Source: Candidatus Nanohaloarchaea archaeon
GTDB lineage: Archaea; Nanohalarchaeota; Nanosalinia; Nanosalinales; Nanosalinaceae
NCBI GenBank assembly: GCA_042217695.1
Contig: JBDGSE010000002.1
Coordinates: forward strand, 1 to 28,857
Length of the DNA stretch: 28,857 bases
Direction of reading: 5' to 3'
Positions 18,001 to 24,000 of this stretch are shown here, piece after piece. The position numbers are program-made. Numbering within the stretch: position 1 is the first letter of the stretch; each line of letters opens with the position of its first letter.

Positions 18001-21000
18001 TTCGACAAGTTCCTGTTCAACGAGGAGACCTTCGATCTGAAGAAGAGGATGGCCGAAGAGGTCGGCATACTTAACGACCCGGAACTCGAGAGATTATGCA
18101 AGGACAAGCTTGAGACCGCCGAAAGGTTTTCCCGGGTACCGGAGACCAGGAAGGCCACAGAGGAGAACATCACGGAGTTCCTGGAGGACGGTAAAGCGGT
18201 GGTGAAGCCCAGGTACGACTTCGGTGGTCGCGGAGTACAGATAATCGGCTCGATGGATGAACTGGAGCCGGTCGACCCCGAGAGGGCAGTGGTGCAGCGT
18301 TTCATCGATACCTCCGGCGGTATACCGGGTACAGGATACGACGGTGTCCACGACCTGAGAGCCTATGTGGTGGATGGCGAGCTGACATTCGGCCTGGTCA
18401 GGGTGCCCGAGGAGGGCCTGGTAAGCAACGTTGCGCTTGGAGGGAGCCAGTTCCTGTTCCCGGCGGAGGATTTCCGGGACGATGCGCTGGAACTGGTCGA
18501 CCAGGTGAAGGAGGAGCTTTCTGTTTTCTCGCCGGCGATGTATTCCGTGGATATGGTGTATGACGAGAACGGCACGGTGTGGATAGTCGAGCTTAACTCC
18601 AAGCCGGGGCTCAGTTTTTACAGCGACCAGGAGATGAAAGAGGCGGTGTTAAAAACCGTGGAAAGGCTTTGCTCCGGACTGGAACGCATCTAGAGCTCTT
18701 CGACGTCTTCCTCCAGCATCCTGGAGGCCTCTAATCTCAGCTTCTTCGCCTGCCGGAGGTCTATCCGGGAACCGTTCTGCATCCTGCCTGATAGAGGAGA
18801 GTAACGGGAGTACTGTATACCCATCTCGTCGAGGTAGTTTCTCACCCCGGGCGATTTCAGACCCTTCTTTGACGCGTTCCGGGAGAGTTCCTTGACCCTT
18901 TCGAACTCCGGCAGCACGAGTTTTTCCCTGTCGTTCTCCCCGCCCGGCACGACCTCTTTCCGCTGTGACTCGAGGAGAATCCTCTGTACGTCCTCCACCA
19001 GTTTCAGGGTCTCGCTGGGAAGGGTGGCGTCCGGGGACCTGTACTCGACTGTGGGGAACTGGTCCCGGAGCCTTATCGGTGTCCAGATAGACCTGTCGGG
19101 GTGGTAGTGTTCCAGGAACTTTTCCTCGGGTATCCCTGCCTCCAGGGCGCCCTCCCTGAATTTTTCAAACGCGTCATTTATCCTCTGCTTCCATTCGTCC
19201 ACCGAGTCGGTGTACTCCCATAGAGAGACGGATTCCGGGAACTTCGGGTCCCAGCTGTAGCGGTAGACCCAGTTCCGCATCGAGGACGCGTTGTTCCTGC
19301 CCTGGTGGTATGGTGAGGCGTTCAGAAGGGCGAATGCGGGGTCCAGAGCGGTCAAAACGTTTAACTGGTCTTTCACGTTCTCCTTCTCGAAGTGGATGTG
19401 GGTGCCGGCCCTGGCGAGTTCTCGCTCTATCTGGATGTCCTCTGGGTTGAACTTCTTCATCATCTCGAGGCGTTCGGTGTCGAGCAGTTCTATCCCGTCG
19501 TGTTTCAGGGGAGTCCCCAGCGGAACAATTTTCAGGCCGTGTTTCCGGGCGTGTTCGATGACTCGCCGTGTCTTCTGTTTTATGTCCCCCCTCAGGCCGT
19601 CGACGGTTTCATGTGGCTCGGATTTTATCTCGGCGATGCATGTCGCGAACTCCGGGGCCGCGAATTCCAGCTCGCCGGTGATAGGCTCTGCGCTGGTAAG
19701 TTCTCCAGAACGGTTGACCGTGAAGTATTCCAGTTCGATACCTTTCCTGATACAGGCCACCTCACTCTTCCCGGGCCATAGCCCTTTCGTGCAGGAACTC
19801 GACTATACCGAGGATGATGTCCTCGTCCACTATCTCGTTTATCTCCTCGCTGAGCCCGAACTGCGCCGCGTTCATCTCGAGCACAAAGATGTCGTCCTCC
19901 GACTCTATGATGTCTGCCCCGCTGATACCCGCTCCGATCGCCCTTGCCGCCCTGATGCCGGTGTCCCGCATCTCGTCTGTCAGTTCGACTTTCAACCGTT
20001 CTCCGCCGGCGCCGATGTTGGAGCGCCACTCGCCCTCGTCCGATGAGGAGCGCTGGTACGCGACGACATGGTCTCCTATCACGATGACGCGGTTGTCGGT
20101 GCCCGAGTGCTCCATGTACTCCTGCAGGCATATGTCCTGTTCGAACGCCTTCATGGTGTCCATCACGGGTTTCAGTTCGGACTCGGAGGAGGCACGCATA
20201 ACTCCCTCTCCTCCTCCACCGGTTATAGTCTTCATTATTATGGGGTATCCAAGTCTTTCCGCGGCCTCGACCGCGGTATCCGGCGACAGCGTGTAAACAC
20301 TGTCCGGGACGTTCAAACCGTTTTCTGCCAGGATCTTCATGGTGTAGAACTTGTTGGTCATCACCGCGAATGTGTCGTCTGAAAGCGGGGTTAGAACACC
20401 GGAGTTGTTCAGTATCTCTGCCAGGTGTTCCGCGAAGTAGACCTCCTCGTCGGAGTGTCGCAGGTAGGCCACGTCGAACTCTGTTATGTCGGTGCCCTTG
20501 TAGAGCACCTGTGTCTCCTCGGGGCCGTAGATGAATTTCAGGCCGTCCGCCGGGACCGCGAGCACCGTATCGAATATCTCTTCTGCGCGTTCTATCATCA
20601 GCTGGTGGGTGGTGGAGTACTCGCCGTACACTATAACCATTTTCATCTATTTTTCCTCCCTCAGCACGTCGGCAACGGTTTCGTAGGCGTTTTTACCCGA
20701 GAGTTCTGTGTAGAGCCCGAGGTCGGGATTGGGGTTCACGTCCTCCACCTTGTCTCCCCGGAGGAGTACCTCTGCCACGGGTGTCCCGATGGCCTTCCGT
20801 GTCTTGAGAACCGTTTCCTTCTTTTCCTGGGATACGGTATGGTACTGGAGGTTGTCGTCGGAGAACTGCCATCCCTCGGAGTTGTCCGCCAGTGATATCA
20901 CGCTGTCGCCCGCTACCAGGCACCGGTACCTGTCCCCGCTCCGGAGTTCCTGGAAGAGCACGAACTGGTTGCCGCGGTCGATGCCCTCGGCGAATTCCTG

Positions 21001-24000
21001 TATCTCCTCCACGGTCTCCAGGCGGGTCTTTTCGGTCTCCACGGATTCGTCGAACTTTCGGGCCACGAGAGGACCCTTTATGTGCCGTTCGATATTACGG
21101 GAGGCCTTTTCCGTGGCCACTACCGCGGTCTTCGGCGCCGGCACGTCTTTCTCGTGTAATACGTGGTAGAGGTAGTTCTTCTTCGACATTATGAAGAATC
21201 CTGTCGAGGGATAGTTCAGCCGGACACCCATCTCCTCTATCATCTCGAGGGCGACCCGTCCGAAAAGTGCGTTCTCGGTTGGTATCTCCGCGAAGACGGC
21301 GTCGTATTCTGAAACCGAGCTGCCGTTGAACTTGACGTCTGCCTCCCCGTCGATTACTTCTGGAGCCAGCGCCTCTATATCTATGTGCTCGGTGTCGTCG
21401 AACAGCGAATCGAACTCCGGGTGTTCGCTACCCGTTATGGTGAGAAGCTTCATTTTTTGTGGTACCTCGGGCTTAATGCCTTTGGAACTCTACGTAGTCA
21501 ACGGGTTTACCAGCTGTTAAATGCGTTACGGTACTATCCCTCATCCTCTTCTTCCCCCTCAGGATGCCATACGCGGGTTATCTTGTCGTTTCCGCGCCAC
21601 TCCTCAACGTACTTGTTCATGGACGAGGGCATGGCGTCCTTCAGTATCCTTCCCTGCCGCAGGATCTTCCTGAGCCGGGCCTCCAGGGTCTTTGAAAGCT
21701 CGTCGTAGTAGTTCTTGTCGGCGTATATCAGGTCGTTCTTGATACGCCAGTAAGCGGTTGTGCCCTTCGGTGCCGCGACGATGTATCCCCGGGAGTGATC
21801 GAACTCCGCCATCGCGTCCAGGAGCCGTTCCTTGTCGATGTAGTACACGCCGCCTTTCGTGCCGCTGGGATCCATGACGAGGATTTCGTTGCCCTCGACT
21901 CCTACCGCGAGGACGAAGTGGCCGGCGTTCGCATCAGGGAATATCTCCGGCTTGTAGAAGTTGGGTACTATCAGGGCGCCGTCGTTGAACCAGGCCTTGA
22001 ACTCGTCTCCCAGGTCGGAGACCTTGTCGTACTCCACGAATGCGGCCCTGACATCGTTGTTGGTGAGTTCCTCGACCGATTCCATGAGTCCTTCTACCTC
22101 GGTGCCCTCCTCTTCCGTGGTGCCGGCCGCGTCGCCTATCTCGTCCTGGCTGTACCTGTAGCCAAAGATCTCCAGCGCCATCTCCATCGAGGCCGGGCCG
22201 CAGTACGCCGGGTGCTGGGCCACGAAGTACGAGGTTATGTCCTCCAGTGTCTCGAGGTCGCTCTTGGTTCTCTTCAGCTTTATCGACGACTTCATTATCT
22301 CTCTGTTGGGCGTTAACAGCGTGTACCCCGAGTTCGTGTCCACCGCTGTTGAAAACATCGTCACCTCTCTTATCTCGCCGGGCTCATCCTGTATGTTCAC
22401 CTCTTCGCCCGGACGGACCATCCGCGAGTTCTTCAGGTATATCCCTGCGGCAAAGTTCTGGAACAGGTCCTTGAAGCCGTAGAAGAGGAGTCCGGCCACC
22501 AGGAATGCTATAGCCCATGAAGAAGCGTTTATCAACTGGTTTATTATCGTCTGGCCTATGCCGAGCTGGTCCAGCATTATCTGGAGCAGTATAAGATACA
22601 GGAAAGCCTTTATTATGCCTGATATCAGGTTGAAGGCCTGGGATGAAAGTCCTGCCTCCCGGAAGTAGTTTTTGATGCCTATAGTATTGAGGAAGTCCAG
22701 GGTTACCTTGGCGAACACGTTTATCGTTATAACGCCGAGTATACCTATCAGGAAGACCGACAGCAGCCGCGGGATGAACTCTGTAACCCGGAGGTAGAGC
22801 TGTTCGGTTAACGCCGAGTTGAGGTAGAACAGCGCCATCGCTATGACGCCGGCGTCCATGAGGTACGATGCGTACTGTATGCGTTCCTCTTTCCGGGTTA
22901 CGTCCTTCTTGGTGGCGGATTCCCTGGCCAGCGAGATCCTTCTCAGAACGAGACTGGTCACCTTTACGGATAGATGGCCGGCTACCAGTATGAACAGGGT
23001 TACAAGCAGTCTCACGGTCGTGTTCTCCTGCAGCACGAAGTTCAGCAGAGAATTCAGGAGGCCGGCCATAACTACCTAATCTCGCTCGCTATTATAAAAA
23101 CCTGCGTTAATCCGTGGATTTGATCCTGCCGTGGCCGATAAGACGCCAGCGAGACCCTATCTGCCGTGAGATGGCCACGCGGTCTCCCTCTTCCGCACAG
23201 ACAGGGACTTTCAGGTCCAGTTTCACGTTTTTACCGGCCTGTGTGACTATCCCCGCGGACTTGTTGGTTCCAACGTTCAGCATCAGGGCCTCGTTCTGCT
23301 TGATGTTCTCGATCTCATCCTCGTTCTCGGCGCCCACGAGCCGTTCCATCAGGTTGGCCTCTATCGTCAGGCTGTCCGTTACAGGAGGGAGGTCCTCTTT
23401 CTTTCCGAGCACGTTGCCAGAGAGGCCGTCGGACTTGGTCAGCGCCGGGTCCAGAGAGGTCTCCACGGCGAGAAGACCGCCCGGTTTACCGGTGTCCACA
23501 GGTTTCTGGCCCTGCATGATGGACTCTACTTCGGTTGTGATGGGCTCCCATTTGTCCTCTCCTGTCCTTACACCGGGCCGGATCTCGACCTCGTCTCCGA
23601 CGTCGAGTTCTCCCTGGACGAGACTTCCCCCGACAACGCCTCCCCGCAGGTCTTCTGCCCCGGTCCCCGGCTTGTTTATGTCGAACGAACGTGCAACCAG
23701 CATCCGTGGTTCTCCGTCGGGTCTCTCCGGGGTCGGGAGGTTTTCATCGATGGCCTCAAGTAAAAGGTCTATATTGACGTTGTGCTGGGCAGATACAGGT
23801 ATGACGGGTGCGTCTTCCGCGACCGTTCCCTCTGTAAACTCCTTTATCTGTTCGTAGTTCTCCCTGGCTGTTTCCTCGTCGACAAGGTCTATCTTGTTCT
23901 GCACGATAACTATGTTTTCGACCCCGATGATATCCAGTGCGGCCAGGTGTTCACGGGTCTGGGGCTGCGGACACTCCTCGTTTGCAGCTATGACCAGTAT

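Follow-up and report, generated by a model that had tools for sequence, protein, structure and literature searches.

Genes of the channel-ligase operon

The window, a 28,857-nt stretch of a Candidatus Nanohaloarchaea archaeon contig, encodes on its reverse strand an MscS-type channel of 511 aa (MscS-C39, 21534-23069) with five helices and a papain-fold domain in place of the cytoplasmic alpha/beta domain. The fusion described in the genome-wide survey's note is real: it occupies one open reading frame, the Pfam matches were reproduced, and both MscS and papain-fold structural matches were recovered. In the AF2 model, five hydrophobic helices lie within residues 1-200 (22470..23069, reverse strand), at about 18-42, 63-85, 98-125, 141-168 and 181-200, the last being the MscS TM3-type pore helix. 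Residues 201-267 (22269..22469, reverse strand) comprise TM3b and the MscS beta-domain, with PF00924 (MS_channel_2nd) spanning 201-263 (3.4e-8). Using a profile of 126 orthologues, residues 184-264 aligned with E. coli MscS 94-175 (E 5e-11), and Foldseek matched the channel to MscS/YnaI (4e-7). The loop at 43-62 is K/R-rich, and an N-out, C-in topology fits this reading of the sequence. A cytoplasmic location of the enzyme domain, previously assumed, is supported by the homology to MscS.

The papain-fold domain (residues 268-437, 21759..22268, reverse strand; Pfam, VIA-align and AF2) is followed by a basic helical tail and then an acidic, disordered end (residues 438-511, 21537..21758, reverse strand), as judged from conservation and AF2. 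In the 126 sequences the tail residues W441, R442, Y449, Y455, K460, R471, G473, W491 and W501 are invariant, whether or not the catalytic triad is intact. The tail has a net charge of +4 versus -23 for the papain domain, and a pLDDT of 45-62 in the AF2 monomer model.

A TATA-like box read from the sequence (TTTTTATAA, 23092..23100, reverse strand) lies 6 nt past the aIF2-gamma stop codon and ends 22 nt 5' of the channel ATG. It probably serves as promoter for a transcript with a short leader or none. In 14 of 21 loci a TATA-like motif occurs 28-35 nt 5' of the channel start codon; in the remaining seven it lies elsewhere, or the chosen start codon may be off.

Two RimK-fold genes follow on the reverse strand. 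AGA (268 aa, 20647-21453), 80 nt from the channel gene, gave no match in the Pfam search and scored 32 bits with rimK_fam against a 143-bit cut-off. It aligned with AGB at 99.5% probability and 18% identity (hhalign), and its AF2 model (pLDDT 94.5) matched RimK (7qyr) with Z 28.6 over 268 of 268 residues. The Gly-rich loop, D184, R199, S209/N210, GG214-215 and D245 of AGB are replaced in AGA, which, by its model and motifs, is a pseudo-ligase: a RimK-fold protein without catalytic residues, not competent.

AGB (294 aa, 19762-20646) follows with a 0-nt gap when the ATG at 20646 is used; of the two spacings given in the note, the 80 nt stands and the 6 nt does not. AGB matches PF08443 (8.7e-33) and TIGR00768 (rimK_fam; 144.3 bits, barely above the 143.4 cut-off), with modestly weaker scores for MptN (119.6 bits) and LysX (119.3 bits). 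Among solved structures its closest relatives are the RimK proteins of Pseudomonas and E. coli, its catalytic residues do not vary across 21 orthologues, and it is the genome's only strong RimK match. Judging from its conserved motifs, all of the catalytic ones included, AGB is a complete RimK-type alpha-L-glutamate-ligase homologue. The pair had been described as two RimK-type ligases; this holds for AGB, whereas AGA shares the fold only. RimK relatives act on cofactors and carrier proteins as well. A search of this genome for the RimB/RloA-type retropepsin PF05618 found none, and control genomes gave matches.

The operon extends beyond the trio already described into a GCS2/YbdK-type carboxylate-amine ligase gene (356 aa, 18690-19760, reverse strand), which starts 1 nt past AGB and matches PF04107 (3e-13) and, under the cut-off, TIGR02050 (1.8e-15). 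Convergent with it, with gene ends overlapping by 4 nt, is a YheC/D- and TTL-like ATP-grasp gene on the forward strand (17764..18693; Pfam ATPgrasp_YheCD 1.7e-9, TTL 1.1e-5), whose probable start Met at 17764 lies within a longer ORF from 17518.

As a single-copy gene, MscS-C39 is a signature of the phylum Nanohaloarchaeota. The C-terminal 244 aa of the channel match 64 of 70 genomes, including 27 of the 28 that are at least 90% complete, once per genome barring splits at contig ends. The matches sit in open frames at least about 500 aa long, unless a contig end cuts them. This query gave no match in G001 (93% complete), G002, G006, G007, G051 and G054. Against 1.84 billion representatives, the C-terminal module had 57 matches at E<1e-10; those with full coverage are the C-terminal end of proteins about 500 aa long, and the shorter ones look like fragments. 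All 62 loci from the species-genome collection are nanohaloarchaeal-type records.

As the note had claimed, the trio is kept together: the order MscS-C39, AGA, AGB holds across 20 loci, one per genus, with AGB in 20/20 and AGA in 19/20 (L030 has a 311-aa ORF where AGA would be). The flanks reported before, TrkH, eS6 and aIF2-gamma, as well as PIN_9 and the Rpo7-like gene, flank it in an order shared by nearly all loci. Adjacency alone is weak evidence, because this whole region is syntenic across the phylum.

The papain-fold domain and its triad

Pfam placed Peptidase_C39_2 at channel residues 284-401 (2.3e-9), Peptidase_C39 at 287-416 (1.3e-8) and Phytochelatin at 271-427 (5e-5; 23.1 bits, under the 24.9 cut-off, with nearly the whole model covered). 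The domain, modelled by AF2 at a pLDDT of about 90, contains Q285, C290, H384 and D400, and the triad surroundings read AQHPAYCGPASME, NAGHFVLA and LVMDPSGT. C290 is indeed the sole Cys of the protein. The Cys-His-Asp triad previously noted (C290, H384, D400) is intact in the window but not family-wide: C290 and H384 are both kept in 82 of 126 orthologues, and one or both are missing in 44.

VIA-align matched the domain to PeiR (Z 18.9, 148 aligned), Nostoc PCS Alr0975 (Z 16.6, 163 aligned), the ComA peptidase domain (Z 16.5, 137/137 aligned) and PCAT1 (about Z 15.9). Among Foldseek matches of the channel C-terminal half, the glutathione acyl-enzyme of Alr0975 had the lowest E-value (1.2e-6, 196 columns, 21% identity). 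PCS clusters were also listed in an ESM Atlas structure search. Because the best structural neighbours differ chemically (isopeptidase, gamma-glutamyl transpeptidase, leader peptidases), the domain may be a hydrolase or a transferase and may act on alpha or gamma linkages.

The leader peptidases bring to mind a PCAT-like exporter, in which the C39 domain would cut a double-glycine leader off a ribosomal precursor and the product would leave via the pore. Besides the Pfam C39 match, it has in its favour that the ComA, PCAT1 and LahT peptidase domains are covered in full (Z 15-16.5). We consider it very improbable, however: no ABC transporter is involved, a precursor gene would not fit because the largest intergenic gap inside the operon is 80 nt, AGB scores 29 bits with a graspetide maturase model versus 144 with rimK_fam, and the triad is gone in a third of orthologues.

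The 82 triad-intact orthologues conserve Q285, C290 and H384 at 100%, plus about ten further residues that co-vary; R427, conserved only in this group, is a candidate carboxylate binder. D400, K358, W360 and the GGVYY stretch are invariant in both groups. In triad-dead orthologues the H384 position holds E, G, R, Q, D or K, a variability that indicates relaxed constraint. The note had the channel trim the peptide; this cannot be a core function common to the family, since Cys and/or His are absent from 44 of 126 orthologues that still keep the domain, the basic tail and the adjoining ligase pair. The same observations suggest that the papain domain could be mainly non-catalytic, a ligand sensor, a ligase-pair scaffold or a cytoplasmic cage wall that gates or positions the channel, with catalysis a lineage-specific extra. 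There is precedent in the non-catalytic C39-like domain of HlyB, whose structures 3zua and 8dck are among the matches (Z 12.1 and 11.3). We find this reading rather unlikely, since the full conservation in the intact group amounts to purifying selection on catalysis, and since triad loss coincides with the gain of another cassette peptidase (below), which argues that the activity matters.

Accessory slot and cassette phylogeny

A slot gene is present downstream in 21 of 21 loci; in the window's cassette type it is GCS2. The named slot genes are GCS2, TTL/YheCD-like, MATCAP (PF08014, down to 2.5e-29) and AstE/AspA (2.9e-20), all of which would perform glutamyl or C-terminal chemistry, by homology. 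An unnamed MobB/DUF1611-like protein is the sole slot gene in 4 of 21 loci. TTL/YheCD-like copies number 0-3 per slot, with at least one in 12 of 20 genus loci and in the window. The slot is exchangeable, holding further amide ligases or carboxypeptidases.

The triad state tracks the accessory genes, which is a new result. Among the 21 genus loci, the 11 with an intact triad all carry GCS2 or a MobB/DUF1611-like gene and none carries MATCAP. Of the 10 with a dead triad, eight carry MATCAP, two do not, and none has GCS2 or a MobB-like gene; dead triads accompany TTL-like ligases. A larger typing (56 informative of 62 loci, from genomes that overlap those of the 21) found an intact triad in 28/28 loci with GCS2 or a MobB-like gene first in the slot and a dead one in 16/20 with a YheCD-like first gene, which is also found in 4 of 32 intact-triad loci. 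Mapped onto a tree built from four flanking markers, the triad state switches at least seven times. MATCAP is concordant with it in 5-6 of 6 independent pairs and opposite in none (sign test, p 0.03-0.06, borderline).

GCS2, found in the window and 4 of 20 genus loci, is restricted to intact triads (5/5, and 11/11 in the larger typing). This restriction and the PCS matches (Alr0975, Phytochelatin, ESM Atlas) would suit glutathione- or phytochelatin-like thiol peptides: GCS2 would make gamma-Glu-Cys, AGB would extend it, and the PCS-like domain would cleave or transpeptidate it beside an efflux pore. Such a pathway seems improbable, given that GCS2 occurs in just 5 of 21 genus loci, the Phytochelatin score is under the curated cut-off, PeiR and ComA match equally well or better, and AGB scores 144 bits with rimK_fam versus 51 with glutathione synthase.

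The AGB gene tree clusters by cassette type, and AU tests rejected the flanking topology for AGB (p 1e-4 to 4e-43; trees from 'quick' searches, with groups named only once the trees had been seen). The ligase gene and the flanking markers thus give conflicting trees, from which it seems that the cassette moves as one block. Start/stop overlaps join the channel gene and AGA in L015, L016, L019, L020 and L023. Together, the operon's own promoter right after the aIF2-gamma stop, these overlaps, the AGB-flank conflict and the co-variation of triad and slot support a functional link between the channel and the RimK-type ligase. They leave the caveat in the note that the synteny is merely historical, with small genomes holding unrelated genes adjacent in frozen order, extremely unlikely, in spite of the constant order of the flanks. 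The channel gene is predicted to be co-transcribed with a glutamate-chain-building ligase.

Proposed mechanism and known analogues

We propose, at a probability of roughly 40%, that this lineage-wide nanohaloarchaeal operon encodes a solute-release channel on which a Rim/Rlo-type module for making and breaking glutamyl peptides is docked. AGB, with AGA as its probable non-catalytic partner, would build alpha-glutamyl chains, which could be free poly-glutamate or could form a Glu tail attached to a protein. The channel-borne papain domain would dismantle or transfer the chains where the pore opens into the cytoplasm. In decayed-triad loci, the MATCAP-like metallocarboxypeptidase of the slot could supply the hydrolytic step, the papain domain being retained as a structural or binding module. 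Through its coupling to the MscS pore, the module would allow the cell to adjust its glutamate/polyglutamate pool and to vent it on down-shock; in a salt-in organism this pool could plausibly serve as a reserve of counter-ions for cytoplasmic K+. This osmotic step is plausible by analogy and from the neighbouring Trk genes; we infer the oligo-glutamate product, its counter-ion role and the tension-gated venting.

Alternatively, the ligases and peptidases might write and erase a C-terminal protein tail, in the style of RpsF glutamylation or tubulin TTL/MATCAP, with the channel as eraser or target and no osmolyte. We think this unlikely: no target candidate was identified, bS6 is to our knowledge absent from archaea, and the fusion to a channel is left unexplained. 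The channel C-terminus is acidic and disordered, and a neighbouring Rpo7-like protein has a poly-Glu run at its C-terminal end, but acidic C-termini are not diagnostic because they are common in halophile proteomes. In its favour, TTL-like ATP-grasp genes accompany MATCAP-like carboxypeptidase genes in 7 of 20 genus loci, and E. coli and Pseudomonas RimK modify the RpsF C-terminus (PMC11957051; 5zk6 is RimK-RpsF).

Under the module that we favour, the fusion and its ligase suggest that acidic peptides are made, broken down and perhaps vented by a system tethered to the membrane. Its published bacterial analogue is the rlo operon of P. aeruginosa, in which, according to PMC11957051, hypo-osmotic tolerance is tied to a RimK-like ligase, a peptidase that cleaves polyglutamate and a membrane protein carrying a papain-superfamily domain. 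RimK/RimB is another (PMC11957791). The papain domain would play the role that RimB has for RimK, and RloA for RloC, in Pseudomonas.

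The channel protein and its papain-fold domain

The 511-aa protein encoded at 21534-23069 on the minus strand joins an MscS-type channel to a C39-type domain, as the genome-wide survey's note had proposed: the Pfam matches were reproduced, and Q285, C290, H384 and D400 follow one another in papain order, with C290 as the only cysteine of the protein. In the channel half, PF00924 (MS_channel_2nd) matches residues 201-263 (3.4e-8, Pfam), and in a profile built from 126 orthologues, residues 184-264 align (E 5e-11) with E. coli MscS 94-175, the stretch of the TM3 pore helix and the beta-domain, and retain the NxAAG motif. 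MscS and YnaI structures are matched (Foldseek 4e-7) by the AlphaFold model, which has a mean pLDDT of 82 and a pTM of 0.43. The MscS alpha/beta domain and the C-terminal barrel closing the vestibule are missing: MS_channel_3rd has no Pfam match in the protein, and residues 268-437 form a papain fold in their place (pLDDT about 90), followed by a helical tail (438-492). The sequence contains five hydrophobic helices and a K/R-rich loop (43-62) that should lie inside. To our knowledge, the beta-domain is cytoplasmic in every solved MscS. By homology, we infer an N-out, C-in topology, which would place the enzyme domain in the cytoplasm.

Pfam assigns Peptidase_C39_2 to residues 284-401 and Peptidase_C39 to residues 287-416, and Phytochelatin (PF05023) comes near its threshold over residues 271-427 (23.1 bits, below the gathering threshold of 24.9). 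Compared with PDB sequences by sequence alone, the C-terminal half gave only a weak match, to P210 CD lyase (0.0021), and a fold search was needed. With VIA-align, the domain aligned to the pseudomurein endoisopeptidase PeiR (Z 18.9, 148 residues), the Nostoc phytochelatin-synthase-like protein Alr0975 (Z 16.6, 163 residues), the ComA peptidase domain (Z 16.5, 137 of 137 residues) and PCAT1 (Z about 15.9, 136-137 residues), scores that are effectively tied. The lowest Foldseek E-value for the enzyme half was to Alr0975 as its glutathione acyl-enzyme (1.2e-6, 21% identity). The model puts the domain among the C39/PCS/PeiR papain-fold enzymes, a fold that does not tell which bond is attacked or whether the enzyme would be a hydrolase or a transferase.

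One way to read such a domain is as a PCAT-like peptidase that cleaves leader peptides for export. C39 domains of that kind are N-terminal on ABC exporters and act on double-glycine leaders, whereas this one is C-terminal on an MscS channel. The operon lacks an ABC gene and leaves too little room for a precursor gene, and the neighboring RimK-family protein scores 29 bits against the graspetide maturase model versus 144 against rimK_fam, so that leader cleavage and export appears very improbable.

Both C290 and H384 are kept in 82 of the 126 orthologues, and D400 in all 126. In the intact-triad group, Q285, C290, H384, G312, G322, N370, P374 and R427 are 100% conserved. All of them are lost in the non-intact group, where the histidine position is occupied by E, G, R, Q, D or K, a variability that indicates relaxed constraint. 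The remainder of the domain and the tail are invariant in both groups. Because the triad is fixed in one group and freed in the other, catalysis appears to be under selection where it exists, and would be dispensable where another peptidase sits in the gene cassette; this conservation pattern also suggests a second, non-catalytic role for the module. The papain-fold domain could be mainly a non-catalytic sensor or scaffold, a reading that we consider unlikely. R427, invariant among the catalytically competent members alone, may bind a carboxylate of the substrate. The tail has a net charge of +4, versus -23 for the papain domain, and holds many of the family's invariant residues (W441, R442, Y449, Y455, K460, R471, G473, W491 and W501). 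Its low pLDDT in the monomer model could be explained if the segment folds only as part of an oligomer or a complex.

Of the 70 genomes of the phylum, 64 have a match to the C-terminal 244 residues, one each unless the gene is cut by a contig end, as do 27 of the 28 high-quality genomes; the six genomes without a match have completeness values of 61-93%. Among 1.84 billion representative proteins there were 57 matches at E<1e-10. Those with full-length coverage lie at the C-terminal end of proteins of about 500 aa, and the shorter ones look like fragments; past these 57, we found only free-standing C39/C39_2 proteins of about 150 aa. All 62 loci from a collection of species genomes are nanohaloarchaeal-type records, although a few are titled otherwise. 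For instance, L067, L079, L081, L083 and L092 show the fusion gene in the usual nanohaloarchaeal order under the titles Colwellia polaris, Aenigmatarchaeota or Nanobdellati, which probably reflects binning and naming conventions rather than a wider range of the gene. Nearly universal and single-copy, the fusion gene marks an entire phylum of tiny symbiotic halophiles; since these organisms have few genes to spare, it is probably important to their salt physiology.

Source databases call the protein 'C39 family peptidase' or 'mechanosensitive ion channel domain-containing protein'. MscS channels bearing sensor domains are known. A full-text literature search found no paper on the protein and no MscS channel with a C39/papain-type enzyme domain (one query was swamped by 'MSCs', that is, stem cells), and the available parts of nanohaloarchaeal papers that mention mechanosensitive channels do not describe it.

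The RimK-fold neighbors and their genomic setting

The channel gene is part of a tight minus-strand run that includes eS6 (24596-24964) and aIF2-gamma (23107-24297) before it. After it come two RimK-fold genes, AGA (20647-21453, 268 aa, after a gap of 80 nt) and AGB (19762-20646, 294 aa, directly abutting AGA), and then, 1 nt further on, a GCS2/YbdK-type ligase gene (18690-19760, 356 aa). The end of this last ORF overlaps by 4 nt the end of a convergent ATP-grasp gene on the plus strand (about 17764-18693).

The survey had counted two RimK-type ligases, and of these AGB alone is catalytically complete. AGB matches PF08443 (8.7e-33) and scores 144.3 bits on TIGR00768, just above the cut-off of 143.4. 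Its closest solved relatives are the Pseudomonas and E. coli RimK proteins (7qyr/7qys, 4iwx), and K139, the Gly-rich loop, R208-S209-N210, D245, E257 and N259 do not vary among 21 orthologues. It is the sole strong RimK match in the genome. AGB is therefore a RimK-family ATP-grasp enzyme with predicted alpha-L-glutamate ligase activity. AGA has no Pfam match and reaches 32 bits against the RimK cut-off of 143.4. It aligns to AGB with an hhalign probability of 99.5% at 18% identity, and its AlphaFold model (pLDDT 94.5) matches RimK 7qyr with all 268 residues aligned (Z 28.6), making it a full-length RimK paralogue. Across 71 orthologues, AGA is replaced at the catalytic columns of AGB, namely the glycine-rich loop, D184, R199, S209/N210 and GG214-215, as well as at the Mg ligand D245. 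Because these residues are lost though the RimK fold is kept, the most fitting reading of AGA is a pseudo-ligase that may partner or regulate AGB. A full-text search found nothing relevant on RimK together with C39.

The whole region is syntenic across the phylum, with TrkH, eS6 and aIF2-gamma on one side and a PIN_9-domain gene and an Rpo7-like gene on the other, so adjacency by itself proves little. A TATA-like box, TTTTTATAA (23092-23100, minus strand), lies directly past the aIF2-gamma stop and 22 nt before the channel ATG, and a similar motif occurs 28-35 nt upstream of the channel start in 14 of 21 loci (the window and one locus from each of 20 genera); the channel gene thus likely has its own promoter and heads its own transcript. 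In several genomes the start and stop of the channel and AGA genes overlap. Together with the functional theme of the exchangeable genes past AGB and their tracking of triad state, both described below, these features lead us to argue for a real channel-ligase module; that the genes stand together as mere historical synteny seems hardly credible.

Several neighbors deserve mention in their own right. A 97-aa ORF without a Pfam family (24294-24587, minus strand) fills the gap between eS6 and aIF2-gamma. A tblastn search of the 20 genus loci gave no match with a coverage of ≥50%; several loci have a gap of about 300 nt at this site. A PIN_9-domain protein (17331-17711, minus strand; 1.1e-12, Pfam) closes off the variable slot at its far side, a border conserved in the window and in 18 of the 20 genus loci; it was not seen in L030 and L032. 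Beyond it, an S1-domain, Rpo7-like protein (16670-17239, minus strand) carries a genetically encoded acidic C-terminal run (...EEEAEEEEEEEE); its gene lies two genes away from the RimK-type cluster, and in most loci the two are syntenic. Families f4 and f5 have a plain MscS paralogue (about 290-340 aa) between eS6 and TrkH, on the strand opposite to the fusion gene (L028 12509-13438 and L030 12455-13261; also L062, L066, L086, L091 and L093), so that two MscS-type genes stand beside the Trk genes at those loci.

The exchangeable slot and the proposed mechanism

The variable slot between AGB and the PIN_9 gene was filled in all 21 loci examined. It holds a GCS2/YbdK ligase in five loci, YheC/D- or TTL-like ATP-grasp genes (0-3 copies) in 13, an AstE/AspA-like hydrolase in three, a MobB/DUF1611-like protein of 340-349 aa in six, and a MATCAP-like metallocarboxypeptidase (PF08014) in eight, the PF08014 matches being weak for the f1 type (4e-9 and 3e-6) and strong only in L032 (2.5e-29). 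Apart from the MobB/DUF1611-like protein, the slot genes appear by homology to belong to amide-ligase or carboxypeptidase families. The MobB-like protein is the sole slot gene in four loci and occurs with intact triads only. It has only sub-threshold MobB Pfam matches (L013 12095-13144, L028 6274-7314 and L030 6277-7299) and is likened by its ESM Atlas features (0.98) to bacterial clusters where DUF1611 is present in a minority of the members. The slot of L032 (G019, f5; 3553-7312) is enlarged, with a second AGB-like gene, a further RimK-like gene (PF08443 5e-21, with Rimk_N), the strong MATCAP homologue and an AstE-like gene; the channel Cys position is Gln there. In the genome under study, PF11814 (DUF3335) was not found and PF08014 had no match, nor did PF08014 match in the control genomes. 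Full-text searches found nothing relevant on DUF3335 beyond one classification paper, nor on DUF1704 with ATP-grasp or on MATCAP in bacteria.

The state of the triad tracks the content of the slot. All 11 genus loci with an intact triad have GCS2 or the MobB-like protein and none has MATCAP; the 10 that have lost the Cys have neither GCS2 nor the MobB-like protein, eight of them having MATCAP and the other two TTL-like genes only. In a wider set of 62 loci that overlaps the 21, 56 were informative: the first slot gene is GCS2 (11), MobB-like (17) or YheCD-like (4) in the 32 with an intact triad, and YheCD-like (16), AstE-like (4), another RimK-like gene (1) or none visible (3) in the 24 with a dead one. 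The restriction of GCS2 to intact triads, along with the PCS likeness of the papain domain, would suit a gamma-glutamyl thiol chemistry, which we nevertheless regard as improbable. The pairing of TTL-like and MATCAP genes suggests a system that writes and erases marks on protein C-termini, in our judgment quite an unlikely one.

Triad state changes at least seven times on the tree of four flanking markers. In six independent pairs, MATCAP changes the same way in 5-6 and the other way in none (sign test p 0.03-0.06); the channel and AGB gene trees need only three triad changes. AU tests reject cassette-type monophyly on the flanking markers (p 4e-43 and 3e-5) and marker sister pairs on AGB (p 1e-4 and 4e-4); the trees come from quick searches, the groups were given their names once the trees had been seen, and related genomes are non-independent samples. 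Because these tests set the AGB and marker trees at odds, lineages seem to have exchanged the cassette, or at least its ligase end, as one unit set between conserved flanks; the cassette types are resolved less cleanly by the tree of the channel gene than by that of AGB.

We propose, with a probability of about 40%, that glutamyl chains made by the ligase are processed at the MscS pore. AGB, with AGA, would build the chains, and the channel-borne papain domain would dismantle or transfer them at the cytoplasmic mouth of the pore. Where this domain is dead, MATCAP-like enzymes would take over that step, and the pore could release the resulting small anions. The osmotic device suggested in the survey is partly supported and stands as the leading, though putative, physiological reading; its chemical product, the role of that product as a K+ counter-ion and tension-gated venting are what such a device would entail. 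A more specific version is speculative and unlikely: a heptameric cage of seven papain-fold domains as a compartmentalised hydrolase or transpeptidase chamber that processes ligase-made glutamyl peptides and feeds the products into a tension-gated pore, with catalysis traded back and forth over evolution with a MATCAP-like carboxypeptidase. If true, this would be a channel-enzyme in the MscS family that couples mechanosensation in a new way to the chemistry of osmolyte polymers, and it would be a prokaryotic counterpart of eukaryotic enzymes for glutamylation and tyrosination. The natural alternation between intact and dead triads in these channels, each kind with accessory enzymes of its own, amounts to a comparative experiment, already in place, that bears on which of the activities matters.

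Comparison with known ligase-peptidase systems and channels

We read the locus as a Rim/Rlo-type ligase-peptidase module on an MscS channel in which an enzyme fold has taken the place of the cage domain; the module is phylum-wide, with cassette types that are interchangeable. Predictions from gene neighborhoods of RimK, 7TM-transglutaminase and peptidase genes reportedly go back to Iyer et al. in 2009. As in the Rim system, a RimK-family protein with all catalytic motifs (AGB) is tied genetically to a dedicated peptidase, here through an operon with the papain-domain channel, and triad loss is coupled to MATCAP-like gain. The peptidase differs in being papain-fold, not retropepsin-like, and fused to a channel, not to the ligase, and the nanohaloarchaeal operon adds the pseudo-RimK paralogue AGA. 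The retropepsin-like family PF05618 (RimB-type) was not found in the genome under study (82.7% complete), while control genomes gave matches. We know of no archaeal homologue of the bacterial target bS6. In the available parts of the published accounts, RimK makes poly-alpha-glutamate and adds Glu tails to RpsF, and the protease RimB removes them and stimulates RimK (PMC11957791, PMC11957051); peptidase-ligase hybrids and rim gene phylogenies departing from host phylogeny are also reported (PMC11957791).

The P. aeruginosa rlo operon, so far as the accessible text describes it, places in one pathway a RimK-like ATP-grasp protein, a 7TM protein whose transglutaminase domain (of the papain superfamily) is inactive, and polyglutamate-cleaving peptidases, and is needed for hypo-osmotic tolerance (PMC11957051). 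On that description, both systems share a three-part logic of a cytoplasmic RimK-like ATP-grasp protein, a polytopic membrane protein with a papain/transglutaminase-superfamily domain and a peptidase acting, in the fusion system putatively, on polyglutamate; the superfamily domain is inactive there and in a third of the fusion orthologues, and the rlo phenotype is hypo-osmotic sensitivity. The same text sets RloB apart as a 7TM protein with a predicted periplasmic transglutaminase-like domain, whereas the fusion protein has an MscS pore and would have a cytoplasmic domain, and RloA is a secreted retropepsin. We consider the rlo and fusion-channel proteins to be analogous, with no homology demonstrated. 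The locus extends the RimK/RimB and Rlo story to archaea, and offers a concrete membrane partner to work on polyglutamate and hypo-osmotic tolerance that does not have a mechanism yet.

Compared with E. coli MscS, YnaI and MscK, the TM3 pore helix and beta-domain align to MscS 94-175, and the five-helix membrane part resembles that of YnaI chimeras; the difference lies in the lower vestibule, where a domain with an enzyme fold and a basic helical tail stand in for the alpha/beta domain and C-terminal barrel. Fusions of MscS relatives to cyclic-nucleotide-binding or EF-hand domains have been described, and MscCG exports glutamate. The C39 domains of ComA, PCAT1 and LahT and the C39-like domain of HlyB share the fold and the Q-C-H-D order (Z 15-16.5, 130-137 residues) as well as a place at the cytoplasmic entrance of a membrane conduit, and both families include an inactive variant. 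Unlike in PCAT/AMS proteins, the domain is C-terminal on an MscS channel rather than N-terminal on an ABC exporter, no double-glycine precursor is present, and the partners are RimK-type ligases. Alr0975 and PeiR, the best or co-best structural neighbors, act on gamma-glutamyl or isopeptide bonds of small peptides, not proteins; identity is about 20%, and neither is membrane-tethered. Lastly, the pairing of TTL-like ATP-grasp and PF08014 genes in dead-triad slots recalls the tubulin tyrosine ligase/MATCAP cycle, although the slot genes are prokaryotic homologues.
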